From positions 6,607 through 70,606 of the IMG/VR virus record IMGVR_UViG_3300021137_000010: 64,000 nucleotides of DNA; one strand, written 5' to 3'. Shown here in pieces: positions 2,236 through 55,821 of the stretch. Within the stretch, counting starts at the first letter, position 1, and every line of letters starts with the position of its first letter. The stretch comes from a virus. A program made the translations under genes and the position numbers. The notes under the pieces are model-generated. The model was not told the DNA's origin. It made no database searches and saw only the letters and a list, made by a program, of their open reading frames with translations.

Positions 2236-3261
2236 TTACGCTCCTACTCCCCACTGAATCATTTCAAAGTGATCTTCGAAGCACTCATCGCTGCGAATTT
2301 CTGCAATTGGAACCCAACGTGCCTTTTCGGCGTCGTCAGCACCCTTTACCTTTGCAAGTGGACCGTCAGGCAACACGATCTTGAAGCAGTGTGTGATGAT
2401 ACGGCCACGAGGAGAACGATCGATCGCATCAAACACTTTGTTTGACTGAATGCTTCCACGCAACACTGGAGTTGGAACCTTGATCATCGTTTCTTCACGC
2501 AACTCACGCAACATCGCGTCTTCCACACTACGGTCGGTGTTTGCATTGACAAAACCACCAGGCAGTGCCCACAGTCCCTTACCAGGCTCAGAGCGGCGCT
2601 TGACCATCAAGATATGTCCACTTTGGATAACCAGTGCGTCAGCTGTGCTCAGGATCGGAGGATATTTCAAACCAGCGTATTGCTTTTTGTACTCAGTAAC
2701 GAATTCGCGCTCGCGCACAACTTGTTCGTGTTCTGGCGTATCGCAGAATTGGTTCAACAAATCAAATGTAGTAGGGGGGACGACGTTTCGAATGAAATTC
2801 ATGTTGGGATCGCGCTTGAAATACAAGTCGCGAATTTCAGACGCATCGAGTGGTTCCAGCAATTCAATTTCTTCGAAGCCCCATTGTGGGAACATTTCTA
2901 GGTAGTAAGAGCTCGGATCCTTCTTGTGGCCGATAATGCCAACTTTGTCACCGGGCTTGGTATGCTTTGCAACTAGTGCTTGCACGCGTGCAGCCCATGC
3001 TTGATCGTTATACAAACTATCAGGGTTCGGTTCAACGTGGAACGTCAGTGTTCCAGCCATGCCGTTCGTTGCCAGCTTGATCATTCGGCTACGTTCGTCG
3101 AATGTAAATGGATTCTTGTAGGTGCGAGGTTGGTGTGCGCTGCCAACGATGAAGACAACTTGTTCAGCAAGCGCTGTGGCTCGTTGAACTAGCAGCAAGT
3201 GAGCTGTATGGAAGGGCTGGAAGCGTCCGATAAGGACGAGGGTATCGTATTGTTTAGTCAT
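2236..3261 (-). CDS. nadM: bifunctional NMN adenylyltransferase / ADP-ribose pyrophosphatase (NadM-Nudix)
   Basis: IGRFQPFHTAH, KNPFTFDER, Nudix box GGFV...RELREET, GADDAEKARW. Confidence 0.93.
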   Translation of the reverse strand: MTKQYDTLVLIGRFQPFHTAHLLLVQRATALAEQVVFIVGSAHQPRTYKNPFTFDERSRMIKLATNGMAGTLTFHVEPNPDSLYNDQAWAARVQALVAKHTKPGDKVGIIGHKKDPSSYYLEMFPQWGFEEIELLEPLDASEIRDLYFKRDPNMNFIRNVVPPTTFDLLNQFCDTPEHEQVVREREFVTEYKKQYAGLKYPPILSTADALVIQSGHILMVKRRSEPGKGLWALPGGFVNANTDRSVEDAMLRELREETMIKVPTPVLRGSIQSNKVFDAIDRSPRGRIITHCFKIVLPDGPLAKVKGADDAEKARWVPIAEIRSDECFEDHFEMIQWGVGA

Positions 3262-6580: not shown

Positions 6581-6786
6581 ACTACAATGTCCTTTGACAC
6601 CAACTCACTCAACACGCTCATAATCTCTTTTTGCTTGTGCAACGGCATGTCAAGCATGACGTTAGTAAGCAGTGTAGACAATGCACCAGCTGCATACGCA
6701 TCAGTACCGAACTCTTTACGAGCAGCGCTGGTGAACAGAGTGAGCTGTTGGTTGATAAATTCGCGATTGTATTTGGTCTTAGACAT
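6577..6786 (-). CDS. hypothetical protein
   Basis: coupled ORF. Confidence 0.6.
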   Translation of the reverse strand: MSKTKYNREFINQQLTLFTSAARKEFGTDAYAAGALSTLLTNVMLDMPLHKQKEIMSVLSELVSKDIVV

Positions 6787-7080: not shown

Positions 7081-7112
7081 TTTGAACTTCCTTAATTACT
7101 TACGATGAGGTA

Positions 7113-7480: not shown

Positions 7481-8545
7481 TTACTTGCTTGGAATCACTA
7501 GTTTCTGACCAACTGCGATGAAGTTGGGGTTAGCCAAGTTGTTACGAGACTGGATGTCACTGTACTTCTTGATGTCACCGAGCTGGGCTAGTGCAATCGT
7601 ACTCAAAGTGTCACCTTTAACCACAACGTAGCTGACTTCACCTGAGCTAACACGACGGACCGCTGCAACAGCAGTGCTCATAAAATATGACTTCAACATT
7701 GTTGTGTATTCAGGGGTGTCGATTGACTTCCGAATCGCGCTATTCAATGCAGCCAGCAAATCTACATCTCCCTTGCGCACGCCAATGCTGTATTTGATGT
7801 CGGAACCTTTGATCTTAGTTTGCGCAAATTGCAGGTTAGTGCCTTCAACTTCAGCTACAGCGAACGGATAGTCGTACATCACCGCGTCTACTTGCTTGGA
7901 AGCGATGTGACCTACAATCCATTTTCCATTCACGTCGGCTTTATCAGACAGTTCAATCAGTTTTGCATCTGGGAATGCTTGCTCAGCGAACGCTTTCGCA
8001 TCCGGATCACCCTGCAAGATGCCGATTCGCATACCCGCGCCAGGAGATTCGCCCTTAGCCATGATCAAGCTGTAACCGAAATCTTTCACATACGGAATCG
8101 TATACACAACTCCTGGATTATCTTCATCATTCAGCGTAATGCCGTCAATAATGATGTCGACCTTTTTATTGGTAAGCAGTTGCTTAGGCAAATCAGCGTA
8201 TGTTTCAACCTGCGCACTCGTATCTACCTTGGTGATGCCTTTGAACTCAGTCTGAGCGAATAGAATCTTCATAAAGTCAACGTTAAAGCCTTTTGCGCGG
8301 CCACCTTCGTCGCTATAAAACGGCTTAGAAGGATTTTGCACACTAGCTTGTACCATCTTAGTCCCGATGATGTTAGCCAAGCGCCCGCCAGCTACTTCTG
8401 CTACAACAGAACCACGTGGGAGAGTGGCCGACGTGTTAGAATGGCCGATAAGCGAATCGACTTTTGCTTTGAATGAAGCATCGCTAAAATACCCAGCGAC
8501 TAACACGACTACGAGAAATGCGACTGAACTGATGAGTTTGTTCAT
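7481..8545 (-). CDS. periplasmic substrate-binding protein (family 3-like) with C-terminal LysM domain
   Basis: N-terminal signal/TM; 'GFNVDF', 'VDIIIDGIT', 'YSIGVRKGD'; LysM 'YVVVKGDTLSTIA...NPNFIAVGQKLVIP'. Confidence 0.85.
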   Translation of the reverse strand: MNKLISSVAFLVVVLVAGYFSDASFKAKVDSLIGHSNTSATLPRGSVVAEVAGGRLANIIGTKMVQASVQNPSKPFYSDEGGRAKGFNVDFMKILFAQTEFKGITKVDTSAQVETYADLPKQLLTNKKVDIIIDGITLNDEDNPGVVYTIPYVKDFGYSLIMAKGESPGAGMRIGILQGDPDAKAFAEQAFPDAKLIELSDKADVNGKWIVGHIASKQVDAVMYDYPFAVAEVEGTNLQFAQTKIKGSDIKYSIGVRKGDVDLLAALNSAIRKSIDTPEYTTMLKSYFMSTAVAAVRRVSSGEVSYVVVKGDTLSTIALAQLGDIKKYSDIQSRNNLANPNFIAVGQKLVIPSK

Positions 8546-10943: not shown

Positions 10944-11142
10944 CAGATAGTTCAACAAATATTTTTCAGCCGATTGAGCTGGTTCTGCTGCGGATGCGAA
11001 GCCGTTTACAACAAGTTTGAACTTATTTTACAATAAATTTTTTGATGAGCTCTATAGAGCAAGTAGTCGCCATGGCGCCAGTTTGATATACATCGAATGG
11101 CTTGTGTGGCGGTAAGTATTTCTGTCACACATCCTAACCAAA

Positions 11143-11904
11143 ATGCTCGAATTAATCAACCAAGCTACTGGACCAAGTCCATCATCAGTAGTATATGTAT
11201 GTCACGCAGATCAACGACCAGTTGGTATGATTGCTGCTGTGCAGAAGTTAACGCTCGCGGCGAATATATACGTCGATTGTGTGGATACAGTAGGAGAATT
11301 ACTACAAAAAGTCGGACGAGGGCTAATTGATCCAGATCTTATCATAATCGATCACAGTCTATTGACAACTCCTAACCCCCATTCTTCCGTTTTTGACATT
11401 ATTAATACTCTGAATACGTTATTGAAGTATCAACGTTCTGAACCTGTGATTGGACCAACTAAGCCATCGTTCGTTGCCGTAGGAATAGATGATCAAGTAG
11501 CCACACAAGTCATTCGAGAACTTCTAACAATTAGCACAATATCTAGGATCTATCCAAGTGGACCTGTGCACACACTAGTCGACAAAGTTACCGCAATACA
11601 GGAATTACTACGCGGAATTCGGCACATGCCTGCTCCAATTAAAGACCGGATCGTGCACCGAGCTAAACAGGTATCTAAGCAACCAATTGAAACTATTGCA
11701 CTAACCCCACGACAGCAACAAATCTTCGATCTTGTTACTACCAGAGGAGCGAGCAATAAAACAATCGCAAATACTCTACACATAACAGATAGTACAGTAA
11801 AGCTTCACATGACAGCAATTTTAAAGAAGTGTGGAGTACGCACCCGGACCCAATTGGCTGTGTTTACTAAGCAACCCAATGTACCAATTTCGCTACTCAA
11901 ATAG
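11143..11904 (+). CDS. LuxR/NarL-family transcriptional regulator with degenerate receiver-like domain
   Basis: LTPRQQQIF...GASNKTIANTLHITDSTVKLHMTAILKKCGVRTRTQL; 'PDLIIID' receiver-like segment. Confidence 0.88.
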   Translation: MLELINQATGPSPSSVVYVCHADQRPVGMIAAVQKLTLAANIYVDCVDTVGELLQKVGRGLIDPDLIIIDHSLLTTPNPHSSVFDIINTLNTLLKYQRSEPVIGPTKPSFVAVGIDDQVATQVIRELLTISTISRIYPSGPVHTLVDKVTAIQELLRGIRHMPAPIKDRIVHRAKQVSKQPIETIALTPRQQQIFDLVTTRGASNKTIANTLHITDSTVKLHMTAILKKCGVRTRTQLAVFTKQPNVPISLLK

Positions 11905-11945
11905 TTATGTCCCACCCTGTACCCGATAGCACACCAGATGCGCTA

Positions 11946-11962
11946 TACCTATTTTAGGAGTA
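11946..11962. promoter_or_regulatory. candidate NarL/LuxR-type operator
   Basis: TACCTAT-TTT-AGGAGTA, inverted TACYNMT-like heptamers. Confidence 0.35.
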
Positions 11963-12081
11963 GTGCGTTAAAGGCTACAGCTAGCCTGATGTGCCCAGTA
12001 TATCGTCAGAGAATTTTTTAAATATTAGTAAGGGAAGACTAATTTAAGTATCCCTTAGAATATATTCTTAGGAGAATTAAT

Positions 12082-12807
12082 ATGGCAGATATCGTAACAG
12101 GTACAGTATCCGGACAAGTAGACATGACATCCGTTCAGGCGCAATTGTCTGACATCCGTCGTGAAGCAGAAGTTGCTGCTGGTGTAGCTAATTTGGAAAA
12201 TATGAAAGGATTTGACCGCGTCAATTCTGACGTGCTGAAGTCTGCATGGCAGACAACGGATGCAACTAAAGATGCGCGCCATGATGTGACTGATGCAGTT
12301 GCATCCCAGGCAGCATTGCTATCTCGACAAATAGATGCAATTGATGACACTCTCAGTGCATCCGTCAATCAAGTTAGTCGTGACGTAACAGACAACCGTG
12401 CACAAATCAGTGCAATTGGTTATCAGATTCGTGACGGTTTCTTCTCAGCAGGTAAAGATTCTGAAATCAATGCGTTAAAGACACAAGTCGATGCAGCTAA
12501 GAACACGACTTACCTATCGGACAAAATTGGCGGCGAAGGTGAAAAAACTCGCCTACTAATCAACGAACTCCAAAGCAACGATCTAAATCGCATGCTGATT
12601 GAACGCAATGCGCTATTGGCTGAAGCATATGCTGATGGTCGTCACGCACGTGACCGCGTCGACATGGGTCAATTTGCAGCAGTGAACAGCCAGATCCAAG
12701 CGCTACACAGCCAGTTGTCCACACAACTAGCAACTCAAGGAACTGTTAACTTTGGTTCGATGAGTGGCAATGCTGGGCGCAATACTAGCACAAACAACGT
12801 AGTTTAA
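12082..12807 (+). CDS. coiled-coil protein of unknown function
   Basis: strong AGGAGA RBS; helical, Ala/Gln/Asn-rich; 'KIGGEGEKTRLLI'. Confidence 0.8.
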   Translation: MADIVTGTVSGQVDMTSVQAQLSDIRREAEVAAGVANLENMKGFDRVNSDVLKSAWQTTDATKDARHDVTDAVASQAALLSRQIDAIDDTLSASVNQVSRDVTDNRAQISAIGYQIRDGFFSAGKDSEINALKTQVDAAKNTTYLSDKIGGEGEKTRLLINELQSNDLNRMLIERNALLAEAYADGRHARDRVDMGQFAAVNSQIQALHSQLSTQLATQGTVNFGSMSGNAGRNTSTNNVV

Positions 12808-12828
12808 TACAAACTAGTGAAGAGTTGA

Positions 12829-12861
12829 AGGGTGGGTAGCTTTGGTTACGCACCCTTTTTT
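12829..12861 (+). terminator. intrinsic terminator between the coiled-coil and collagen genes
   Basis: GGGTGGGTAGC-TTTG-GTTACGCACCC followed by a T run. Confidence 0.65.
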
Positions 12862-12892
12862 AATTAAGCATGGCGCATATTTAAGGACGATT

Positions 12893-13786
12893 ATGGACAC
12901 CCTAAACAGACGACTGGTTGAACTAAATGAGGCCTTATTGAAACTGTCAATGGGGCAAAAGGTAGATGACAGATTGCTAACCCAAGCTCGACAAGTGTTA
13001 GCTGGAGCGACAGTTGGTCCTCTAATCGACACCGGTTCGGGGAACGATACTGTGATCGTAAATGAGGGAGGGAGGTGCAACTGCCCACCTGGACCTCCGG
13101 GTCCTGTCGGTCCACCCGGACCAAAAGGAGATAAAGGTGATCAAGGAATTAACGGAGAGCCAGGTGCTACAGGCTTGCCTGGCCCTGCAGGAGTTGCAGG
13201 CCCACAGGGGGAACAAGGACCATCAGGAGTTGCAGGTACTCAAGGACCAACTGGACCAACTGGAGAACAAGGTCCGCCTGGCGCAGATGGTACGACAGGA
13301 CCAATCGGTCAACAAGGTCCACCAGGATCAGCCGGAGCTGATGGTGCTCAAGGACCAGTTGGTCCAGCTGGACAGCAAGGTATACCAGGACCAACTGGTG
13401 CAAATGGAGTTGACGGTCAGAGTGGACCAGTTGGAGCACAGGGTCCGGCAGGACCACAAGGAGAGTCTGGTCCGGCAGGACCAGCTGGTGAATGCACTTG
13501 CCAATGTACGACGACTGTTGTTACAAAAAACTACACAACTACGATGGATGACTATTATATTGGTGTTGCTAATCCTCGACCGGTTACCATCACTCTACCA
13601 AGCTATCCAGCACACTGCATTCAACTAATCATCAAGGAAGAGTTGGGACCCCCAGTCGGCAATCGAAAGATTACGATCGCAACCGAGGATGGGAGTTTAA
13701 TAGACGGCAATGCAGAATTTGTGATTACAGAACCCTACGAAGTTCTGCGATTGATCTACCGCGGCGGAGAATGGCATGTTATTTAA
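12893..13786 (+). CDS. collagen-like protein
   Basis: about 45 uninterrupted G-X-Y triplets flanked by CNC and CTCQC; C-terminal beta domain 'YYIGV...VTITLP'; start refined using the AAGGA RBS. Confidence 0.9.
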
Positions 13787-14082
13787 CAATAGTCGAATCC
13801 ATAAGCGTCGTGACTATCTTCATCGTCCCTATCGTACTGCCAATTGGGGCTGGTACCTTTTGGAGCGCAATCTCGCCAGTGATTACCGTAGTTGTGACGA
13901 ATACCGTAACCGGATTGATTGGTGGGACGATGAGCTGATTGAGCAGGAATTTTTGTTACTTGCTGCTCGGCGAACATGGCGATATTGTCAACCCAGGTTG
14001 CATGCGCCCCCTTGTTAATCCTGTAACCCAACCCCGACCATGCAGCGAATGGTCGGAAGTCGGTTAATCGCAGTACAGACAT
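13783..14082 (-). CDS. hypothetical protein
   Basis: coupled ORF, convergent with the collagen gene. Confidence 0.6.
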
Positions 14083-14084
14083 TG

Positions 14085-14507
14085 TTAAAACTTTACGAAC
14101 ATTTCGTCGATGTTGAACAAAAAGCGGTTCTTCATATTGTGAAGGACGTTTTCTGGTACACCATGCACAGAACTGAAGTTGGATTGCGCTAGGATAACAG
14201 TAGGATTTTGCCCGTACTGTTGAATCATCTCGAAGTAAGGCTGGAGTTCCTTCTTAGTCGTGAACGTGTTAGACACGATCACAGTATCACCTTCTTTAAG
14301 GCGTTCGGCACACTCAGTTTGGCACCAAGCATGAGCGGCACCAATCCTCGTTACATCCCAGTGATAGTTACCAGCTTTGTCAGTGAAGAACTGGTCAGCT
14401 TCGTAATGGCATACTGGGATAAACCGTTCGTACGAAGCCAACAGACATTTTGCAAGCGTGGACTTACCAGATCCGGGATTTCCTCGAATAATAATCAACT
14501 CACGCAT
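14085..14507 (-). CDS. P-loop kinase (AAA_33 / polynucleotide kinase-like)
   Basis: IIRGNPGSGKST, EADQFF, AHAWCQ, VSNTFT, HGVPE. Confidence 0.85.
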   Translation of the reverse strand: MRELIIIRGNPGSGKSTLAKCLLASYERFIPVCHYEADQFFTDKAGNYHWDVTRIGAAHAWCQTECAERLKEGDTVIVSNTFTTKKELQPYFEMIQQYGQNPTVILAQSNFSSVHGVPENVLHNMKNRFLFNIDEMFVKF

Positions 14508-20369: not shown

Positions 20370-21209
20370 ATGTCGTCAACCTTTGTTCCAACTTTTCTAT
20401 ACATCAAGCGACACAAGATAACTGGGTTGTTGTATTTCGGAAAAACCATTAGAAACCCTGAAAAATACAAAGGGTCTGGCAAGTATTGGTTGCGGCATTG
20501 TGCTGCACACGGTACCGAGCATGTTGAGACTTTGTGGTACTGTCTATTTGTTGATTTGGATACGCTACAAGAATTTGCATTAGCGTTTTCACGACAACAA
20601 TCCATCGCGGTCGACGAAGGATGGGCGAACCTCATTGACGAGAATGGAACCAATGGCGCACCAGTCGGGCACGCGGGGGTAGTGTTTTCTCCTGAAAGTT
20701 TACAAACGATATCCGAAAAGTCTAAACAAAGTTGGGCGATAAATCGCGATAGGATCAGCAATGCACAGAGAGCAGCTGCAAACACTCCTGAACGGTTAGC
20801 ACAGTATTCGAAGAACTCCAAGTTATATTGGGAGAATGCTGACGAGGAGCGGCGAGAACAACAACGGGCGATTGTTAGACGGTTGGACAACTCAAAGTTT
20901 TTAGCATTATCCAAACAGCCGAAAACCGAAGAACACAAAAGAAAAATTGCACAAGCGCTAACCGGGCGACAGCGAACTCCAGAGAATGTGCGAACACAAC
21001 GCATTGCTCGTTCGAAACACAAAGGCAAATTCAGAGACCACAATGGCGTTGTATATGAGCAGGCTATTGATTTTTTAGATGCGTATGAGTTGTATGCTTC
21101 ATTTTTGGATACGCTCGACAGTCCGGTGAAGCACAAAAGCGCCAGACGAAAACTCGGAATAGAAAAATCCACCCTAACGAAGCGTGAGTTAGGGATGGAT
21201 TTTGTTTAG
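20370..21209 (+). CDS. GIY-YIG-type free-standing homing endonuclease
   Basis: LYIK.H..TGLLYFGKT...YKGSGKYW...WANL; NUMOD-like 'KTEEHKRKIAQALTG'; TAAATA at 20337. Confidence 0.85.
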   Translation: MSSTFVPTFLYIKRHKITGLLYFGKTIRNPEKYKGSGKYWLRHCAAHGTEHVETLWYCLFVDLDTLQEFALAFSRQQSIAVDEGWANLIDENGTNGAPVGHAGVVFSPESLQTISEKSKQSWAINRDRISNAQRAAANTPERLAQYSKNSKLYWENADEERREQQRAIVRRLDNSKFLALSKQPKTEEHKRKIAQALTGRQRTPENVRTQRIARSKHKGKFRDHNGVVYEQAIDFLDAYELYASFLDTLDSPVKHKSARRKLGIEKSTLTKRELGMDFV

Positions 21210-21937
21210 TCTTTGGATTTCACCAAATAAGCGTTAGAAATCGCTTTCCAGGTGAGACGCTTGCGAGATTTAGCCTTAAACACGAGACCTTCACGTTTCG
21301 TTTTCGGGTTGATGACTGACGGACCGTCTGCCATTTTGATCACATCATCGATTGTCATGTCACCAAACGACCAATTCGCGTCAACCAGTGGAGCTTCCAT
21401 AAAACCAAACTTTGCCGCAAATTCATGGCGTTCGTCAGGGTCCATGTATCGACCGCCTTCGTTAGGCAGCTGCACGTCAAATAGACGGAACTGGTGCTTG
21501 TCCAATTTGTAGATGTTGTCCTGAATACCAGGGCCAATTGCTTCGCCTTGGATTGCAATGTCTTGACCAAACTGGAGAAGGCGAGATTCTGCTTCAATGG
21601 CTGGCGAACGAGCAAGATCCCAGAATGTGTTACCTTCAGTTTCCTTGAGGTCCAAATTACGAGAGGCAACACCAAATTCACCGTCGAGAATGTACATCGT
21701 GCAAGAGGAACCTTCACACTTTTCCTGCACTTCGTACTCTTCTGCTTGCAACGTACCGTTGTTGAAGGCGCGCGTCAGGTTTTGGATGCGTTCTTGATCA
21801 GTCTTGACGATACGGGACGGGAAGTTACCACGAGCCATACCAGCAAGTTGAGCAGAGATTGGGGCTTCCCACTTTTGAATACCGAGTACTTCTGTCAGGT
21901 CAATACCCTCTTCAATTTTAATCAATAGTGTGTTCAT
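21206..21937 (-). CDS. RNA ligase (DRB0094/Rnl5-like), C-terminal nucleotidyltransferase part
   Basis: FPSRIVKTDQERIQN, EKCEGSS, IQGE, FRLFD, REGLVFK, KAISNAYL; own ATG overlaps the GIY-YIG stop region. Confidence 0.85.
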   Translation of the reverse strand: MNTLLIKIEEGIDLTEVLGIQKWEAPISAQLAGMARGNFPSRIVKTDQERIQNLTRAFNNGTLQAEEYEVQEKCEGSSCTMYILDGEFGVASRNLDLKETEGNTFWDLARSPAIEAESRLLQFGQDIAIQGEAIGPGIQDNIYKLDKHQFRLFDVQLPNEGGRYMDPDERHEFAAKFGFMEAPLVDANWSFGDMTIDDVIKMADGPSVINPKTKREGLVFKAKSRKRLTWKAISNAYLVKSKD

Positions 21938-22811
21938 TTTGTTTAATCGCTTTGCAAAATTTTCTAAAATCTGTATATCCAAGTTCGCGCACCCATTTTC
22001 GTAACACCCAACTCGATATTCCAAACGTGTATTCGAGGTTAGCCATTGATGTTTTCGTAGACTGAATGTGTTGTATGATATCTGCTTTTGGTTTTGGGGG
22101 GAACTCAACATAGTTGGGGTTGCTTTCACCTGAAAACTGTTGGCGGCGCTTTTCACGCTCAACAGCAGCCTTTTCCTCTCCAAACACCTGCTCGTAAGTC
22201 ATTCCCAACCGTGCTTTACCCATCTTTTCTTTTGAAGCAGCAGAATGTTGCTTCCCTGTGAAAGTTCCCACTTGGCCCGCTTTCCATTTCGTATACTCGG
22301 GGGGTGCTATTCCTCGTTCTTTGTTGGTGGTGCTTATTTTTGCTGCTATTTCGGCTTTTTGTTCTGTGGTGTAGCTCTGCTGTCTTTTAGTCGCGGCGGA
22401 AGCCATATTTGCGCGTTGTTCCGGAGTGCGTTTTTGCCCAGTTCGAGATAGTGCCTGCCGCTTATATATTTCTGCACGGTTAGGATTATGTTTAAGCACA
22501 AACCCACCCTCACCACCTTCGGTCATATTATAGTTACCAAACGAGTGTTCTGCATTTAATTCTTTAATCCAATATTTTTCCCGCTCTGTTAACTCTTCTG
22601 TTGTTGCACAGACTTCTAAAATATCAATCGAAAAGTTTTCAGCGCCGTGTTTTCTAATTGAGTTATACAGAGGGCGGTGCGATGTCAGTGCGTCACGCTG
22701 GTGTCGAGCCCACCGCTCTTCGATCAGCCGTTCGGTCTTCCCAACATATATTCGGCCGTTGATATTATTTGTTATCCGGTAGATTACCACTTTGTGTTCC
22801 CGTAGTTGCAT
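21918..22811 (-). CDS. GIY-YIG homing endonuclease with NUMOD3-like repeats, inserted in the RNA ligase gene
   Basis: VIYRITNNINGRIYVGKT...RW..H...EKYWI...YNMTEGG. Confidence 0.92.
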   Translation of the reverse strand: MQLREHKVVIYRITNNINGRIYVGKTERLIEERWARHQRDALTSHRPLYNSIRKHGAENFSIDILEVCATTEELTEREKYWIKELNAEHSFGNYNMTEGGEGGFVLKHNPNRAEIYKRQALSRTGQKRTPEQRANMASAATKRQQSYTTEQKAEIAAKISTTNKERGIAPPEYTKWKAGQVGTFTGKQHSAASKEKMGKARLGMTYEQVFGEEKAAVEREKRRQQFSGESNPNYVEFPPKPKADIIQHIQSTKTSMANLEYTFGISSWVLRKWVRELGYTDFRKFCKAIKQNEHTID

Positions 22812-41602: not shown

Positions 41603-42532
41603 ATGCGTATTTACACGATTTATATGGCCACCAATATGGTCAACAACAAAAGGTATATTGGATTCGATTCCGCTTGGCCCAATCGACAAAAAGACCACCT
41701 TAAAAAAGCGTTCGGTAAGTATAACCAACAAAATAAGTATTACTTTCACAGAGCTATTCAAAAACACGGTAGAGATAACTTCGAATGGACTGTGTTATAC
41801 CAAAACCTCGATGGGGAACATACGAAGAATGTTATGGAGAACCACTTCATTGCAGAATATCGCACGTTTCGTGGGTTCGAAGACTGCAATGGATACAACC
41901 TATCACTTGGTGGGGATGGGAACTTGGGTCGAAGACATTCAGCAGAAGCAGTAGCCAAGGTGAGCCAGAGTAAGACTGGGAAACTAACAGCCCGGTCAAG
42001 ACCAGTTACCACACCGTACGGAACATTTGATAGCTTGGCTGCAGCGACGATGGTTACTACACAGCACGGAATATCAAAAGGAATGATGTACGTACGACTA
42101 CGTAGTTCATAGTTTCCGGAGTGGAGTTTCGTAGATACGCCGAAACATACTCCTGTTGCGAAACAACGAAGACAACGCACCAAACCGTTGCCGAGACAAC
42201 AACGGGCTGTAACTACACCAGAAGGTAGCTTTGAGAGTGTCAAAGCAGCAGAAGTAACAACAGGTACGTCAATGCAAACAATTCGATGGCGAATACATAG
42301 TGTGAATTATCCAGATTGGTATTATAGCGAACCAGCTACACACAAACTAACAACTTCCAACCCAAAACGGCTTACTGTACGGACCGAGTCCGTACAAACC
42401 CCGATTGGTACATTTTTTGGATTAGAAGCTGCATCAGTAGCGACCGGATTGCAAACTGGGACTATACGTTACAAGATTAGCAGCGACAATTACCCAGAGT
42501 GGCAGTACGATAATACTGTAGTAGAAAATTAA
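41603..42532 (+). pseudogene. GIY-YIG homing endonuclease with one in-frame TAG (42110-42112)
   Basis: TIY..TN.VNNKRYIG, GYNLSLGG; three 'VTTP.G.F.S...A......RI.S..YP.W' repeats continue in frame across the stop. Confidence 0.8.
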
Positions 42533-49470: not shown

Positions 49471-49977
49471 TTAATCCTTAAATTCATTCCACTCACGGTG
49501 ACCATATCTACTAGCGGTATTACTTTGGGTCTCTCTGACTTCGATGCGGCAACACCACAGACGATCCGCTTCAACTTGGCCGTACGACGGTAGGAGAATT
49601 GTGTTTACATACTCGTATAAAAAGTCTGACAATCCTTCACATCCAGTTTTTTCAACTTCTGTGATCTTTGCAATCCCCGCATTGTGCATCGCAACAAATA
49701 GCTCCTTATGGGGATCATCGATTGCAACCAAAAGCCGATGGTCGAACCATTCTTCTAGTTTCTCTTTTAGAGGACGCAATCCACCAAAATCCATTGCCCA
49801 ATTTTTTACATTGAGGTCATCAGTCTCGAACCAAAATTTAATGGTGAGTGCATAGCCGTGCACGATAGAGCATTTCCCATCATCTCGCCACTGACGATAT
49901 GCAACCGGAAATGCATCCTTGTACTCTTTTGTACTCACATACTTTTTCTGAATCACTGGTCTTATATTTGCTGTCAT
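49471..49977 (-). CDS. queD: 6-carboxytetrahydropterin synthase / PTPS
   Basis: CSIVHGY, DFGGL, FDH, GCEGL, EVRET..N. Confidence 0.88.
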   Translation of the reverse strand: MTANIRPVIQKKYVSTKEYKDAFPVAYRQWRDDGKCSIVHGYALTIKFWFETDDLNVKNWAMDFGGLRPLKEKLEEWFDHRLLVAIDDPHKELFVAMHNAGIAKITEVEKTGCEGLSDFLYEYVNTILLPSYGQVEADRLWCCRIEVRETQSNTASRYGHREWNEFKD

Positions 49978-49979
49978 CT

Positions 49980-50927
49980 TTACTTTCCTTTTGTTAATCT
50001 ATTACAAAATTCCACTAACACCTGGGAGCGTTCCGTAGGAGACATTTCATCTGTTACCACGAAAACAACAAAACCCTTTTCTTTCGCCAGGTCTATCTTA
50101 TGTCTGTCATTGTGGTACATCTCGGTTAACGTTTTTTTAGTAACCGGATGTACCGAATTATCAGGTTCTACTGGATGCCAAAAACTCCCATTGTATTCTA
50201 AGATAGATTTGGTCTCTCGATCAGTAAAGTCATACCCATATATTTTATTCGACTTACTCAGCCAAAATTCTCGTTTGCCCGGAACATCGCAATATAGTCG
50301 CTCCATGATAACCGTTGGCAGTGCTTGGCACAGAACATCGTAAATCCGCTTTGCAGGAGCTGACATCCTATTTGGACCATGGAAAGCCTTCTTCATCGCA
50401 TCATGGTATCGTTGTGTTCCGTCAATTTCACCATATTTGGTGACGAACACGTCCAGTCTGGGTTTACCCCTGATTTGCTCTGTAAGATATTTTTCTAACC
50501 CAGCGTCTCGTTTTTGTTTTATGGCTTTTTTAAGTTCGGGATGTTGTTGCCCAACGGTTTTTTGTTGACGAGCGTAGATATCAGTAACCGCAGCGTCCCC
50601 CAGTTTTTCTCTGACTATTGCAACGGTGTTTTTCTTAGCAAGCGTTTCTTGCCATTTTTTCTTACCAAGCTCTTCGCCCCATCGAGCGATCATATTTTCT
50701 TCCGTTTGGAGCGATTTGTTAACGTGAGTTGTAAACCGTTCGAGTCCGTCATCGGGGTACCGCCATAAAAACCATTCTTTTGTAAGTCTTCGATATGGAT
50801 GGGTTTTGTACGTTTCTTCTCGTTTTTTCAGCTGCACTTGTTTACTTGCATACTTTGCTGGACCTATTGTAGGTCCATACTTCGTGATATAATCATCTTC
50901 AGTCATAATAACGTATCCGTGCATCAA
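49980..50927 (-). CDS. putative homing endonuclease (YG-repeat N-terminus, Vsr/PD-(D/E)XK-like C-terminus)
   Basis: repeated (K/R)(Y/W)G units; YDF...ILEYNGSFWH...D..K...A...GF. Confidence 0.7.
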   Translation of the reverse strand: MMHGYVIMTEDDYITKYGPTIGPAKYASKQVQLKKREETYKTHPYRRLTKEWFLWRYPDDGLERFTTHVNKSLQTEENMIARWGEELGKKKWQETLAKKNTVAIVREKLGDAAVTDIYARQQKTVGQQHPELKKAIKQKRDAGLEKYLTEQIRGKPRLDVFVTKYGEIDGTQRYHDAMKKAFHGPNRMSAPAKRIYDVLCQALPTVIMERLYCDVPGKREFWLSKSNKIYGYDFTDRETKSILEYNGSFWHPVEPDNSVHPVTKKTLTEMYHNDRHKIDLAKEKGFVVFVVTDEMSPTERSQVLVEFCNRLTKGK

Positions 50928-50963
50928 CCTATTTATGCGTAAGCACGGATACGCCTCAAAAGA

Positions 50964-51659
50964 TTAGGCCGTTGGCAGTTTAGTGCGAGCGATTGCTAAG
51001 AATTCAGAGCGAACGTATGGATTGTCGACAAACTTACCGCTCATTGCGCACGTAACCGTATCAGCTGCAGTGTCTTTAGCACCACGAGTAGACATGCACA
51101 AGTGAGCCATCGAGGCGAACACTGCAACGTCAGTCGATTCAGTGATAAACTTCATTGCTTCCAAGATTTGGTGAGTTAGACGTTCTTGTACTTGCGGACG
51201 AGCTGCAAAGAAATCAACAATGCGGCTGATTTTCGATAGACCAAGTACACGTTCGCATGGAATATACGCAACGACAACTGCTGGCTTATTCAATCCGCCA
51301 GCTGGAATAATCGATAGCAAGTGGTGTTCACATTGCGAAACGGTGGAACAAGTAACTGCAACAAATTCGTCAGGTGCCGACATCTTGTTTTCGACGGTTG
51401 TGCATTTCGGGAAGTTGTCATAATCGAGTCCCCACATAAAGTCATTGACCCACATCTTACCAACTCGACTAGGAGTATCGATCAAACTGTCGTCAGTGAG
51501 ATCGAGACCGAGTGCTTCTAACATGATCTTGGTAGATGCAGCAATTTTGTCTATTTGCTCCTGTTTGGTAAGAGTCTGTTCAACCATTGGGGTTTCGATG
51601 CCAAGTGCCAATAGGTGCGCATGCACTCGTTTACCTAGTTCCGGATTTGATTTGCTCAT
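50964..51659 (-). CDS. folE: GTP cyclohydrolase I
   Basis: DTPSRV, CEHH, GLSKISR, RPQVQERLT, HLCM..RG. Confidence 0.95.
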   Translation of the reverse strand: MSKSNPELGKRVHAHLLALGIETPMVEQTLTKQEQIDKIAASTKIMLEALGLDLTDDSLIDTPSRVGKMWVNDFMWGLDYDNFPKCTTVENKMSAPDEFVAVTCSTVSQCEHHLLSIIPAGGLNKPAVVVAYIPCERVLGLSKISRIVDFFAARPQVQERLTHQILEAMKFITESTDVAVFASMAHLCMSTRGAKDTAADTVTCAMSGKFVDNPYVRSEFLAIARTKLPTA

Positions 51660-51692
51660 TTTTGTAGTTCCTTTTAAATATAAGATTGCTAT

Positions 51693-51977
51693 TTAGACTA
51701 GTTGAATACCGGATACTTCTTGCAAGTAATCTTTTTCGAACGCTGCATCAACTTCGATAACTGCGACGATGTGAGCAGCCGGAATTGTGACAGACGGTAG
51801 ATCGACAGCAGACATGAAGATTGGAGCTAGCATCAAACCCTCCCCTTTTTGAGTGCGAGTGAGCATTAGTCGGCGTGGATCCTGTAGAGTGATCTTGCCA
51901 TCATCGTGAAGCGAAGGTTGGTGTTTACCGATCCACTCTTCACCGTTTGTTACCTTGATTGCGATTACTGTTGCCAT
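51693..51977 (-). CDS. Sm-like fold hypothetical protein
   Basis: KVTNGEEWIG...P...SGI. Confidence 0.55.
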   Translation of the reverse strand: MATVIAIKVTNGEEWIGKHQPSLHDDGKITLQDPRRLMLTRTQKGEGLMLAPIFMSAVDLPSVTIPAAHIVAVIEVDAAFEKDYLQEVSGIQLV

Positions 51978-51978
51978 G

Positions 51979-52536
51979 TTATAGTGCCTTTTGAAGAATA
52001 GTGTTCTGCATGTATACCGCTAAAGTATCAACATCATCGAATGTGTTATCAACATCTGTGTGAATCGTATCATGTTGGTCAACGAACGTGCGTATTTTAT
52101 TGTCCATCACAATAGATTCAGCAAGAGTCTGCACTCTCCCCTCTTGCTTGAAAATATCTGAATTACGATTGATCCACACGTTGAAATTGTTGTATTTGTT
52201 GTATAGGCTTAACGAAAGCTTTTCGAATTCCTCATACGGATAGTTAGGAATGTATTCTCGTGCATACGGAGCGAACAATAGTAACGGACAGTCGCTGACA
52301 ACTACTCGTACTTTACCGTCTAGTGCCCACAACTTCTGATGTTGATTGGCGAGTAAGATTTCTGGATGTTCTAACACGTTTCCGTGATTGAGCCATACAG
52401 ACATTTTGTGCCACTCGTCTACGTACTCACAATCGATGCCGGCTTGCTTTAGCAACCCAGCAAGTAATAACGCGACGGTAGTTTTACCAACCCCAGCACC
52501 TGCGATGCAATTCACTACCAAAAGTTTGGATTTCAT
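51979..52536 (-). CDS. P-loop kinase/ATPase (AAA_28/NadR-like)
   Basis: GAGVGKTT, DCPLL, EGRVQT. Confidence 0.8.
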   Translation of the reverse strand: MKSKLLVVNCIAGAGVGKTTVALLLAGLLKQAGIDCEYVDEWHKMSVWLNHGNVLEHPEILLANQHQKLWALDGKVRVVVSDCPLLLFAPYAREYIPNYPYEEFEKLSLSLYNKYNNFNVWINRNSDIFKQEGRVQTLAESIVMDNKIRTFVDQHDTIHTDVDNTFDDVDTLAVYMQNTILQKAL

Positions 52537-53147
52537 TTTTTAAATCCGCTTATGGTGAATAATTTTTCTCTGCCAGTTACCAATGTGCTAATCTGCTTCG
52601 TATCAATGAAGTCTGCTAGTACAGCATATGCATCGAATGGAGTAATAACGTCTTTCGATTGCTCAACTGGAGCAACAATTGTAATAGTATCTGGAAGGTA
52701 ATTCATTGGGAAATTAGCAATCTCGTACGTATCAGTAAACACAACAATATCATAATTGTCAAATACCGCAAAGTTACTGTTGTCCAACAAGGGTCCGAAG
52801 AAATAACACTTGAACAAATTTGGGGAATTGACGTACTCATTAGCTGCAGCTTGCTCATCGAGTGATTTGACGATCGAGTCAACGACGTAGTCTGTAGACA
52901 TATTAAGTAGGATTTTTGCAAAAAGAGTACCGTGGTTGCCTATGGCAATTACTCGCTGAGGTTTATGATGGGTGTTTCTATTGAGATGCGCTGCTAATGC
53001 AAACAGTAGAAGTAATTGTCCACCTGATGCGTGCATTCCTGGAGAGTAGGACATCCCAATACAATCAGTTAAAATTGAAATTGGGATGAGGTTTTGGGTA
53101 GAAAACGTTGGTTGAAATTGTTCTGTGAACTGTACTGTTGGTGCCAT
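52533..53147 (-). CDS. hypothetical protein
   Basis: ORF only. Confidence 0.55.
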   Translation of the reverse strand: MAPTVQFTEQFQPTFSTQNLIPISILTDCIGMSYSPGMHASGGQLLLLFALAAHLNRNTHHKPQRVIAIGNHGTLFAKILLNMSTDYVVDSIVKSLDEQAAANEYVNSPNLFKCYFFGPLLDNSNFAVFDNYDIVVFTDTYEIANFPMNYLPDTITIVAPVEQSKDVITPFDAYAVLADFIDTKQISTLVTGREKLFTISGFKK

Positions 53148-53179
53148 AAATGTAGTTATTATCTAACTACAGTATACAG

Positions 53180-55528
53180 TTACAGTGCGGTGGGTGCTAC
53201 AGGTGCTGCTTTTTCAATTACATAATTATTAATAACCAAAATATCCAATCCACATTTTTTGAATGTGGTTACCGCGTCTTGTGGAGTTTCGACAATTGGC
53301 TCCTGACAGTTGAAGCTCGTGTTCAGTAACATCGGAATTCCAGTGATCTTATAAAACTCACTAATAAGCTTGTGATAACGTTCATTAGATTCTTTAGTCA
53401 CTGTTTGTATTCTCGCAGTCCCGTCTACGTGAGTTACACCTGGAATTTTATCAGATACCACAGGCATAATACGAGACATGTATGGACTTGGTTGATTTGT
53501 GTCAAAATACTCAGTATAATACTCTTCCAACACGCTGGGAGCAAACGGTCGGAAATCTTCTCGTAGTTTAATAGTCGAATTAATAATGTCTTTGATGTTA
53601 GGATTTCGCGGATCTGCAAGAATACTACGATTCCCGAGTGCTCTATTACCACTCTCGGACTTTCCTTGATACCACCCTACTATTTTACCATTAGCAATAG
53701 CCTGTGCGAGTTCGGTCGCGATCTCGTCAAACTGCTTATCCTTCCAAGATAACCCTTCAAATATAGCAGTATCAATATCATGTTCTTCCCCAGCATATAC
53801 TGTGGGAATATGTATATTACCATTTAATACATAGTCGGCGTGCATATATGTGCCTAACGCTTGCCCCTCGTCGCCAGGTGCAGGTGGTACAAATACATTT
53901 TCATACATCTTAGTAAATTCTTCAATTAGATAGCCGTTATACGCAACTCCGCCGCTGATACAAAGGTTTGACGAGGTCTTTAGTGAACCGACGACGTGAG
54001 TTACAAGACTGGTCGTTACTTTTTGCAATGTAAACGCTACGTCTTCCGTAGGTATTGTGTCGATGATGTTCCAATTTTCTGCCGACACACGTTTATCCGT
54101 TATATACTGATTAATAATATCACCAAAGTTCTCGTTGAATTTTCCATAGCCAGCTAATCCCATTAGTTTACCAGCGCCAAGATACCCCATTCCTGTATGT
54201 TGGGATAGCATATTCCATAAGCTCCCGATAGTTAACTTATCAGAGAGATCTACAATATTAAAGTGAACATCTACGAAGATGCAGCTGAATGTGCACCCTT
54301 GTCCGTCAATCGCTAACACGTCGGAGTCGGTATACCCAGAACTCAGTAACGCATATACAGCATGAGATTGATGATGATCGATGTAATAATAGTTATCAGT
54401 GTAATAACTATCCCACAGATTCGTAGGCTTAAATGAAAAAAAGTCTGAGGCAACCGGAAGATGAATATCTAACATATCCGATACGAATTTTTTCCCCAAA
54501 CTCGAACATGTAAACGCAATCACGTTATTATCAACACTGCAACTATATGTATAATTCGGCACAAAATGCGCTAGGAAAAATTCTCTACTCGGTCTCGAGT
54601 CGAAGGGTCCACCATCAGCGAGATTGTGTTTTCTCCTCGAGTACCGTTCCTCCTGTCTATGCAGAATGCCATCATATGTATTGTGATCGTGCATATTTAC
54701 CGCCGTTGCAAAAATATTCACACGAGCTGCAGCGCCGGGCACTTTGTGGAGGCGGGTCACTTTAGCGTGCAGTGTATTGATGCGAGTACGAGTCACTTTA
54801 GCAGGCGATTTGTGTTTTGACCAATCCCGCATATCCGTAGTAAAGTGGCTCCAACTCTCATTTGAAATGTTCGGAGAAACGTGAATGTCTGATGGTCGCA
54901 TCGCGTTAAAGTCTACTTTGTTTCGTAGAGTTAATTTATTTGCATTAAAGTCTCGATTCGATTTAACCAACAGCAGGCCAAACCCCTCTTGCATCGCGAT
55001 ACATTTTGCTTGATCTACTTCATGCTCGTTGTATTTAAATATGATATATTGCCAGTTAATACATTGCTCTAACTGTTTTCCAAGCTTCATCATTTCCCAC
55101 ACATTTTCGTAGTCTGACCCTATTCGGTATAGTTCACTCTTCTTATCGATACCATCAACCCCAAAGAACCACGCATTTTTGCCTTTACCGTAGCTAAATG
55201 CCGTTTTCCACCAATCGACGCTCCGACCAGTACCATTAGTCGAAATTCGCAATTTCTTGTTACGCTCGTCGCACAGTTTTAAAAAGGATAGAAAATTAGG
55301 ATGATATATCGGATCAGAAATTTGTCCACAGAACGCGACACCGCCATAGTAATCTAAAATTTTTACAAAGTCAATTTCAGCGAGGTCAAACGATCGTTTG
55401 ATTTGAGACTGGCTTCCTAACTCTTGTCTGTTACATTGTGGGCATCTTAAAATGCACCTGTGAGAAATATCCAAATTAGGTAAAAAATTTCGTTGATTTC
55501 GTATATACGTGTCAGTGATTCGGTCCAT
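53180..55528 (-). CDS. radical SAM domain fused to NodU/CmcH-family carbamoyltransferase
   Basis: CILRCPQC; HHQSHA, AIDGQG, GKLMGLAGYG, SGGVAYN, PGDEG, RALGNRSILADP, REDFRPFAP, HVDGTARIQTV, LNTSFN. Confidence 0.88.
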   Translation of the reverse strand: MDRITDTYIRNQRNFLPNLDISHRCILRCPQCNRQELGSQSQIKRSFDLAEIDFVKILDYYGGVAFCGQISDPIYHPNFLSFLKLCDERNKKLRISTNGTGRSVDWWKTAFSYGKGKNAWFFGVDGIDKKSELYRIGSDYENVWEMMKLGKQLEQCINWQYIIFKYNEHEVDQAKCIAMQEGFGLLLVKSNRDFNANKLTLRNKVDFNAMRPSDIHVSPNISNESWSHFTTDMRDWSKHKSPAKVTRTRINTLHAKVTRLHKVPGAAARVNIFATAVNMHDHNTYDGILHRQEERYSRRKHNLADGGPFDSRPSREFFLAHFVPNYTYSCSVDNNVIAFTCSSLGKKFVSDMLDIHLPVASDFFSFKPTNLWDSYYTDNYYYIDHHQSHAVYALLSSGYTDSDVLAIDGQGCTFSCIFVDVHFNIVDLSDKLTIGSLWNMLSQHTGMGYLGAGKLMGLAGYGKFNENFGDIINQYITDKRVSAENWNIIDTIPTEDVAFTLQKVTTSLVTHVVGSLKTSSNLCISGGVAYNGYLIEEFTKMYENVFVPPAPGDEGQALGTYMHADYVLNGNIHIPTVYAGEEHDIDTAIFEGLSWKDKQFDEIATELAQAIANGKIVGWYQGKSESGNRALGNRSILADPRNPNIKDIINSTIKLREDFRPFAPSVLEEYYTEYFDTNQPSPYMSRIMPVVSDKIPGVTHVDGTARIQTVTKESNERYHKLISEFYKITGIPMLLNTSFNCQEPIVETPQDAVTTFKKCGLDILVINNYVIEKAAPVAPTAL

Positions 55529-55821
55529 TACTGCGTCCCTTTTGTGCCACATTGTCGTTTACATGTAGCTGTTGCATGATTAGGGTCAGTTAATAACGTA
55601 GTAAAAAAGTTCTCCCACTGGTCAGATCCGAAAATTTGCTCTAATGAATCATTTTTAGATAGTTTTAAGACGTCATCTCGTAAGCCACGTTGCACTATGT
55701 CGTCATACGCTGCCCAGTTATCTAACCAACAACACGGAAGCATAAACCCATCGGAAGTGTAAGCGGCAGATTTATGGGTTGCTGGCTCGAATTGTAGGCA
55801 CTTGGGTATTATTCTTATCAT
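55528..55821 (-). CDS. stand-alone SPASM/twitch-like Fe-S protein
   Basis: PKC...SDGFMLPCC...SLEQIF...C...C. Confidence 0.7.
   Translation of the reverse strand: MIRIIPKCLQFEPATHKSAAYTSDGFMLPCCWLDNWAAYDDIVQRGLRDDVLKLSKNDSLEQIFGSDQWENFFTTLLTDPNHATATCKRQCGTKGTQ

Follow-up and report, generated by a model that had tools for sequence, protein, structure and literature searches.

Predicted coiled-coil rod and collagen-like proteins recur together, often with a NarL-type regulator, in a candidate accessory virion-fibre cassette of large uncultured phages

The DNA considered here (the window) is a stretch of 64,000 nucleotides, positions 6,607 to 70,606 of IMG/VR virus record IMGVR_UViG_3300021137_000010, and its main subject is a cassette of three plus-strand genes. 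Gene 1 (11143-11904, an open reading frame (ORF) of 253 aa) encodes a NarL-type regulator, gene 2 (12082-12807, 241 aa) a protein with the predicted shape of a long rod, and gene 3 (ORF 12842-13786, likely coding sequence 12893-13786) a collagen-like protein of 297 aa counted from ATG 12893. The host contig is linear, 70,606 bases long and about 26% complete according to CheckV; it covers only a fragment of the roughly 270-kb genome of a large, uncultured freshwater phage, and every absence stated for it, like the distance of the cassette from tail genes, applies to that fragment. The ORFs flanking the three-gene block on either side lie on the minus strand, and within the window AT skew is positive over 11001-14000 alone, so the original prediction, made from the sequence alone, of three plus-strand genes inside a minus-strand region is borne out by the ORF calls, the flanks and the skew. 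The composition and recurrence of the cassette are solid; from them we infer its function, for which a self-regulated accessory fibre or whisker module of the virion is tentatively favoured, at slightly less than an even chance. The window is proposed to carry the minimal form of this cassette.

The core of the cassette is gene 2, which has no Pfam or PHROG family; when 57 aligned homologues were compared with PHROGs, three weak single-member matches were all that appeared. Among 1.84 billion proteins the family has 96 cluster representatives at E ≤ 1e-3, on contigs of up to about 400 kb, and a second search returned 215 proteins, which, so far as their sources name them, are each a “hypothetical protein”, with the exception of one automatic “DivIVA” label. 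The Atlas look-alike clusters shown for gene 2 are 96-100% viral, and a scan of 185,579 bacterial and archaeal species genomes gave 16 pattern matches, none of which was confirmed as a relative. These two results point to a gene of lytic phages; a reading of the cassette as a prophage moron was rejected. No fused or longer form of gene 2 was found at E ≤ 0.001, which is weak evidence. By sequence comparison, gene 2 represents an unnamed, virus-only family.

Modelling with AlphaFold2 and the family alignment predicts a single helix spanning residues 16-217 (predicted local distance difference test, pLDDT, 82.2), followed by 24 disordered residues that are nevertheless the most conserved part of the family and carry the motif NFG-x-M ... 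NNV. Hydrophobic residues recur along the helix with a period of 3.65 (= 11/3) and essentially no power at 3.5; residues 16-125 follow an 11-residue (hendecad) register and residues 126-217 a 7-residue (heptad) register. Large hydrophobic side chains occupy about 25% of the helix positions and form a narrow stripe. Family members range from about 200 to 446 aa, the variation arising through extra 11-residue repeats, and the product is accordingly modelled as a coiled-coil rod of variable length with conserved ends. A Foldseek search gave no match, as expected for a single long helix, and the gene 2 profile found nothing significant among solved structures, the best being apolipoprotein A-IV at E 0.072. 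By Pfam, gene 2 does not qualify as an apolipoprotein: the model fails to match it at all, and of 11 long relatives two match, the better with 24.3 bits where the cut-off is 90, weak resemblances that are attributable to the 11-residue repeat.

The argument that the three genes belong together comes from their relatives. Sixty loci on viral contigs were fetched, and 60 loci plus the window contain a gene 2 homologue, with L060 devoid of one in the stretch examined; they collapse to 48 distinct loci, which, being related, are not independent samples. L004, L005, L028 and L043 come from near-complete contigs of 240-400 kb. Neighbours were sought with models built from the cassette’s own proteins, so that diverged partners can escape detection. 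A same-strand gene with at least six G-X-Y triplets lies directly downstream of gene 2 in 43 of the 48 distinct loci (40/45 where at least 1,500 nt of downstream sequence is available), and in 39/48 the downstream collagen gene ends in the same C-terminal knob as gene 3. The regulator is found directly upstream of gene 2 in 20 of the 44 loci with at least 1,500 nt on that side. A linkage of gene 2 homologues to LuxR-type regulators and collagen genes, which the original prediction named as support, is therefore observed, nearly always for the collagen gene and in a large minority of loci for the regulator. On the gene 2 tree, regulator linkage occurs in three places (a clade with 16/18, L003, and the group L023/L028/L029), and the starred branches force at least five changes in this linkage. 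Five distinct loci have no collagen gene after gene 2, and three of these (L023, L028 and L029) keep the regulator. Taken together, these comparisons support the view that the block is conserved as a functional unit of three genes.

This distribution also bears on the simplest sceptical account, namely that gene 3 encodes nothing more than a late tail fibre of the usual kind, without any real tie to the regulator, and that the adjacency of the three genes reflects chance or shared descent only. Such an account draws on the 24 of 44 distinct loci in which the model used finds no adjacent regulator, on the relatedness of the loci, and on the fact that the combination of collagen and knob is common in phage fibre proteins. 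It appears very improbable, since the regulator, gene 2 and a short DNA element, TAAGTA, co-occur at three separate places in the gene 2 tree, and since the collagen gene most likely depends on a promoter in front of gene 2, as discussed below.

Gene 1 matches Pfam GerE (3.5e-13; 49.4 bits against a cut-off of 23.5) through a helix-turn-helix (HTH) at residues 187-241. A profile of 16 homologues compared with the PDB retrieves NarL (1a04, E 7.6e-19), VraR (5hev, 1.8e-15) and VpsT (3kln, 2.9e-14), in each case across the linker and the HTH, which supports the NarL-like character first ascribed to the system. The N-terminal domain has no Pfam Response_reg match; its Atlas model resembles Response_reg clusters with TM scores of 0.57-0.68 over residues 8-175. 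Before the HTH, only M1 and T92 are invariant among the 16 homologues, with no invariant Asp, and five of the 20 distinct regulator relatives encode the HTH alone (72-86 aa). Gene 1 is thus best described, from its sequence and predicted fold, as an atypical regulator of the NarL/FixJ type whose N-terminal domain (approximately residues 1-175) is degenerate and receiver-like, and it is probably independent of phosphorylation. The reported absence of a sensor kinase holds for the contig, where the lone HATPase_c match is sub-threshold and falls inside rIIA. Assignment to the quorum-sensing LuxR proteins was rejected, as Pfam gives gene 1 only GerE and sigma-70 region 4 and the N-terminal domain looks receiver-like in its model.

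A recurrent DNA element accompanies the regulator. TAAGTA stands at 12045-12050 (+), 31 nt before the ATG of gene 2, and occurs in the 130 nt ahead of gene 2 in 19 of the 20 distinct loci with a regulator versus one of 29 without. A second copy (11113-11118) occupies the loop of an inverted-repeat hairpin upstream of gene 1 (11103-11131, +), 24 nt before the ATG; the 51-nt fold at this site has an energy of -16.0 kcal/mol (z -3.1), and none of 200 shuffles was as good. By our count, 13/20 distinct regulator loci have a plus-strand TAAGTA near the regulator start (-190 to +175 nt relative to the start of the longest ORF). The hexamer is rarer in the contig than expected (23 observed against 48 in shuffles). 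It may be either a promoter element or a half-site of the regulator. Further (G/T)TAAGTA copies directly precede small genes outside the cassette, at window position 7103 (-), about 17 nt before an ATG with the ribosome site AAGGAAG, and at contig position 3220 (window -3387, +); these could be further members of one regulon or class of promoters.

Immediately after the TAAGTA of gene 2 a leader stem-loop begins (12051-12075, +), the 3' arm of which overlaps the ribosome-binding site AGGAG (12070-12074), located seven bases before the ATG; the strong ribosome-binding site attributed to gene 2 is indeed there. The window’s own leader stem is weak and not significant alone (-5.8 kcal/mol, with 96 of 200 dinucleotide shuffles as good); across the family, a stem-loop starting 1-6 nt past TAAGTA is present in 18 of 19 distinct loci with differing stem sequences, a pattern that fits a transcript starting at this point with a 5' hairpin. 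In the loci without a regulator, TAAGTA is generally missing, and seven of the 29 (L031, L036, L039, L043, L047, L053 and L057) have CAGACGA-type repeats, two or three per locus and alternating in orientation, in the 200 nt upstream of gene 2; these look like a different operator set for another regulator.

The original prediction had placed a NarL-like operator elsewhere, in a 7-3-7 dyad at 11946-11962 between genes 1 and 2. The NarL heptamer consensus is TACYYMT, and this dyad is an exact TACYYMT-N3-AKRRGTA, the sole match in the window and one that occurs in none of 100 shuffles (with one mismatch allowed, 34/100 shuffles contain a match). It forms the apex of a 33-nt hairpin after the stop codon of gene 1 (11937-11969, +), which is followed by a second small hairpin (11972-11987, +); the 86-nt fold of this region has an energy of -23.3 kcal/mol (z -2.56; 3/200 shuffles as good). 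In 63 related loci (684,098 bases) no such dyad was found at spacers of 0-7. The dyad is therefore exact and unique in the window, and it was rejected as a conserved operator, being a feature of this phage alone. Both of its half-sites and TAAGTA fit KRRGTA, the last six letters of AKRRGTA, and on the reverse strand TAAGTA agrees with six of the seven positions of the NarL heptamer consensus. Hence the idea of a NarL-like operator may have been right in kind, with TAAGTA as the element that is conserved.

Between gene 2 and the collagen gene lies a terminator (12827-12861, +), consisting of a hairpin at 12827-12858 and six T; it was missed by a simple consensus scan and found by folding (-21.8 kcal/mol, z -3.2, 0/200 shuffles as good). 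Of 48 distinct loci, 29 have a hairpin with a T-run behind gene 2, compared with 38 of 300 random control windows. The 31 nt between the end of the terminator and the collagen ATG contain no TAAGTA, and expression of the collagen gene most likely relies on read-through from the gene 2 promoter. The original expectation of a lower expression of the collagen gene is in this way supported in its premise, a recurrent terminator, and the ratio of the two products would follow from how many transcripts pass it.

Gene 3 itself was first read from TTG 12842, an unlikely start because it falls inside the terminator hairpin; ATG 12893, with AAGGA five bases upstream, is preferred. From this start the protein consists of a conserved N-terminal domain (12893-13090, residues 1-66), 45 uninterrupted G-X-Y triplets (13091-13495, residues 67-201) with Pro at 20 of the 45 X positions, and a C-terminal knob (13490-13786, 98 residues); the triplets are recognised by Pfam Collagen at 2e-22. 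Cysteines 62 and 64 precede the triplets as CxC and cysteines 201, 203 and 205 follow as CxCxC, together with Cys242, so a residue count upholds the 45 bracketed triplets as they were described.

The knob is modelled as an eight-stranded beta-sandwich (pLDDT 91.5), and its structural neighbours are phage fibre and baseplate parts: TSP4-N of phage CBA120 (7rej_B, residues 75-175; Z 12.0, root-mean-square deviation 2.0, 94 aligned), a baseplate chain of Klebsiella phage KP1 (residues 90-194, Z 11.4), the C-terminal end of an Acinetobacter phage tailspike (residues 606-696, Z 10.9), the C-terminal region of the Pa223 capsid spike (residues 179-289, Z 10.1), a T4 baseplate chain of 602 residues, presumably gp10 from its length (residues 32-146, Z 9.8), and T4 gp9 (residues 35-163, Z 9.7). 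Sequence identity to the CBA120 and T4 domains is 13-21%, and unrelated structures score Z 4 or below. A 50-sequence knob profile touches the proximal subunits of T4-type long tail fibres (9f4a_Le, full-sequence E 0.0023, in weak single stretches). Among the predicted viral structures of BFVD the knob has 278 matches at E ≤ 1e-3, including tail fibres, tailspikes, “Gp9/Gp10” proteins and, from both phages and giant viruses, proteins with collagen repeats, and in Agrobacterium phage Atu_ph07 it ends a protein adjoining an annotated tail fibre gene. Neither BclA_C nor C1q matches gene 3. Taken alone, gene 3 encodes a viral fibre protein of a familiar type.

The relatives show that the cassette can be larger than in the window. 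Where at least 5,000 nt of downstream sequence is available, a second knob protein of about 203-211 aa is present in 22 of 39 loci, a Peptidase_C1-like gene in 18/39, and a tyrosine-rich ORF with the gene 2 C-terminal motif in 10/39. The protease lies at the end of the cassette and was confirmed by Pfam at 1e-8 to 1e-15 in the ten loci scanned; papain-family genes with intact Cys/His context occur in L001, L005, L006, L012, L036, L043, L047, L057, L059 and others, and in L001 neither a prodomain nor a signal peptide is apparent by inspection. The Tyr/Pro/Arg-rich ORFs (60-110 aa), found downstream of gene 2 homologues in loci from L001 to L059, share the motif S-Q-I ... N-F-G-x-M ... V-x-Q, and its common occurrence at the C-terminus suggests, on sequence grounds, a modular docking or processing signal; other Tyr-rich ORFs, in L001, L004, L023 and L029, lack the gene 2 motif. 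A further family, here (b), of 120-220 aa, has the N-terminal motif ELL..A.ELL...Y..R.A..HN.W followed by P-Y-P and no Pfam family; the 13 distinct loci that encode it all have the regulator (including L023, L028, L029, L001, L002, L003, L006, L009, L010, L014, L017 and L019). The protease, the second knob protein and the family (b) protein were not found in the contig of the window. The description of the block as a self-contained island thus holds for the three-gene unit, which recurs, and not for the cassette as a whole, whose further genes in relatives would not be visible in a fragment of this size. Beside the cassette, a 99-aa ORF on the minus strand (13783-14082) runs towards the collagen gene, with which it shares 4 nt at the collagen stop codon; Asp, Tyr and Trp abound towards the C-terminus of its product, which has only a weak PHROG match (phrog_25175, E 0.0015). 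It could be a counterpart of the aromatic-rich peptides of the relatives, though on the opposite strand.

Several functions had been proposed originally, among them virion decoration, inclusion or occlusion bodies and lysate aggregation, and of these virion decoration is the best supported because the collagen protein ends in a knob of the phage fibre and baseplate type; the others are speculative. The near-constant order of gene 2 followed by one or two knob-ended proteins, together with a rod of variable length, favours an accessory fibre or whisker module. In such a module the NarL-type regulator would act at the TAAGTA promoter regions of its own gene and of gene 2, to which it is linked, and transcription of gene 2 would begin just past TAAGTA, the 5' stem-loop and strong ribosome-binding site yielding an abundant product. 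This product, a rod of about 30 nm that passes from hendecad to heptad periodicity, may oligomerise, and the terminator behind its gene would let only some transcripts through to give less of the collagen-like protein. By analogy with other proteins of its kind, the latter would trimerise from its C-terminal knob, with the flanking Cys clusters locking the triple helix. Rod and collagen fibre might then co-assemble as extra fibres or whiskers of the virion, probably serving adsorption, and the tail motif common to gene 2 and the Tyr-rich peptides of relatives may be a shared docking signal.

A number of observations weigh against this proposal and keep it tentative. Gene 2 is absent from 50,697 cultured-phage records (tblastn with gene 2 and with a more typical family member), so that the products are not tied to particles. 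The knob fold, itself a predicted structure, indicates the kind of protein and not its destination. The three loci that combine regulator and gene 2 with no collagen gene imply that gene 2 can work without the fibre. A private regulator is unusual for virion genes, and both in the window and in the relatives examined the cassette stands amid genes for DNA metabolism, methylases and homing endonucleases, outside the structural genes. The Tyr-rich peptides and papain-type protease of the relatives hint at a more elaborate assembly than a simple fibre. Finally, no RNA run covers 11000-14000; the matching runs are DNA contigs, which cannot rank the genes by expression.

The elaborate relatives lead to the alternative that the cassette is a kit for a coat or matrix, in which the rod, collagen hairs, Cys clusters and the Tyr-rich peptides and protease of relatives build a cross-linked layer or matrix in place of discrete fibres. 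It could surround the virions or lie within the infected cell or the lysate, and could resemble a spore coat or the nap of an exosporium. The motif-sharing Tyr-rich ORFs and those without the motif, the frequency of the Peptidase_C1-like gene and the Cys clusters on both sides of the collagen run all agree with it, as does the collagen protein of one relative (L034), which matches BclA_C below threshold (29.6 bits; cut-off 38). However, nothing points to cross-linking, the contig of the window has no protease, second knob or family (b) protein, and since inspection, the only means used, reveals no signal peptide in gene 2 or gene 3, export before lysis would be left unexplained. A coat or matrix kit is considered unlikely.

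Alternatively, gene 2 may not be a structural component but an assembly factor, a chaperone or scaffold for trimeric fibres that would be abundant because it acts stoichiometrically during folding and would be absent from the finished particle. Phage T4 offers precedents in its helical fibre chaperones and in fibritin-assisted fibre attachment, and gene 2 is entirely helical and tightly adjoins one or more genes for trimeric fibres. A change of length by 11-residue repeats, though, suits a spacer or rod better, L023, L028 and L029 retain gene 2 with neither a collagen nor a knob gene nearby, and genes for known fibre chaperones usually follow the fibre gene. On balance this role for gene 2 seems quite unlikely.

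A more specific version of the coat, which is to be regarded as decidedly improbable, would make it switchable: the regulator, perhaps sensing the state of the host, would decide whether progeny particles receive a nap of rod and collagen. In the same reading, the NFG-x-M tail common to the rod and the Tyr-rich peptides would be a targeting or ligation signal for the papain-type protease and the result a cross-linked, exosporium-like layer. Weakest of all, and most improbable, is the suggestion that gene 2 encodes an amphipathic repeat protein akin to apolipoproteins, LEA proteins or phasins, which would coat a membrane or hydrophobic surface inside the infected cell, and that its place beside the fibre genes reflects shared regulation only: its 11-residue repeats, the non-significant apolipoprotein A-IV match and the two long relatives with Pfam Apolipoprotein matches are what it can call upon, whereas those scores lie far below the cut-off, the narrow hydrophobic stripe and the heptad second half indicate a coiled coil rather than a broad lipid face, and the linkage to fibre genes is very strong.

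The accessory fibre or whisker module therefore remains the preferred reading, and the genomic setting in which it would operate is that of a phage without close cultured relatives. Matches to PHROGs in the window concern replication, nucleotide metabolism, rIIA/rIIB and base modification, nearly all on the minus strand; the closest match of rIIA is only 28-34% identical, and megablast of 11000-14100 against the 50,697 phage records gave no match. In eleven related loci the flanks consist of DNA-metabolism, methylase, homing-endonuclease and auxiliary-metabolism genes, many of them on the opposite strand, and the layout of an inverted island is therefore a general feature of the cassette. Pieces of the contig with zero differences occur in four freshwater metagenome runs from the years 2012, 2016 and 2017, and the phage is a stable member of freshwater communities.

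Several other genes of this phage are of separate interest. Base-modification genes cluster at 49471-55552 (-) and encode a GTP cyclohydrolase, a QueD-like synthase and a 790-aa protein that joins a radical-SAM part to a Nol-like carbamoyltransferase, which suggests DNA modification of the 7-deazaguanine type. GIY-YIG-type homing endonuclease ORFs are located at 21206-22811 (-) and 41603-42112 (+), and one of them extends over the 5' part of an RNA ligase ORF, in what may be an intron or a split gene. The 354-aa product of 7481-8545 (-) combines a hydrophobic N-terminus, an SBP_bac_3 solute-binding domain and a C-terminal LysM, an unusual mix for a phage. Outside the window, the ORF at contig bases 4320-5765 (-) presumably encodes a protein resembling nicotinamide phosphoribosyltransferase, as judged by inspection and not by a family scan; long stretches of this ORF are nearly identical to the open-ended one that closes L003 (8969-9487), which suggests a shared gene order.

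How a phage adsorbs, which hosts it can infect and how it persists in the environment depend on its fibres and head decorations. Here a gene of the fibre type travels with a presumably abundant rod protein and, in one large branch, also with a NarL-type switch and a matching DNA element. This combination points to an optional or conditional feature of the virion surface, which would be unusual for lytic phages if true, and the breadth of the gene 2 family, with its 96 protein clusters, indicates that the module is widespread. No published description of the cassette was found in a literature search conducted mostly at the level of titles and abstracts, a term search of PMC12619734 likewise gave none of the cassette’s terms, and its parts are best appreciated against the known systems that they resemble.

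The regulator shares with NarL, VraR and VpsT the GerE HTH and the linker; its N-terminal domain resembles a receiver in predicted structure and fails the Response_reg model. Unlike them it is encoded by a phage, has no invariant Asp and is accompanied by no kinase in the contig. BclA and the bacterial collagen-like proteins combine a G-X-Y stalk with a C-terminal trimerising globule and an N-terminal attachment part. Gene 3 has a similar G-X-Y architecture, and its L034 relative has the weak BclA_C match given above; in contrast to BclA, the knob of gene 3 lacks BclA_C and has the fold of phage fibre and baseplate proteins, and the gene 2 scan of species genomes revealed no such cassette. The same small beta-sandwich as that of the knob is found in CBA120 TSP4-N and in T4 gp10 and gp9 (PDB 7rej, 7rfo, 7rfv, 5iv5 and 1qex), where the domain is close to the N-terminus and serves to connect fibres with the baseplate or with one another, whereas in gene 3 it is C-terminal and is borne on a collagen stalk.

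A comparable arrangement is that of the capsid spike gp52 of phage Pa223 (PDB 9ny6), described in the part of the preprint consulted as a trimeric head spike that attaches through its N-terminal part and ends, beyond an elongated middle, in a C-terminal knob, to which the authors assign a TNF fold while giving the function of the spike as not known (bioRxiv 10.1101/2025.06.11.659172). Its knob is like that of gene 3 (Z 10.1), but its stalk is a triple beta-helix and not collagen, and the same part of the source presents neither a partner rod nor a private regulator. Precedents for collagen-like trimers and helical coiled-coil fibres are provided by the collagen-like capsid decoration gp12 of SPP1 and by the coiled coils of the phi29 head fibre and T4 fibritin, in a review that, in the portion consulted, suggests roles of head and neck fibres in cell attachment (PMC7602432). 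The likeness is one of description, and these are, as far as that portion presents them, single genes in the normal late programme rather than a pair of rod and collagen under a regulator of its own. Fibre and decoration modules of phages are thus already known, and what is new in the present cassette is its uncharacterised core protein and its unusual regulatory layout.

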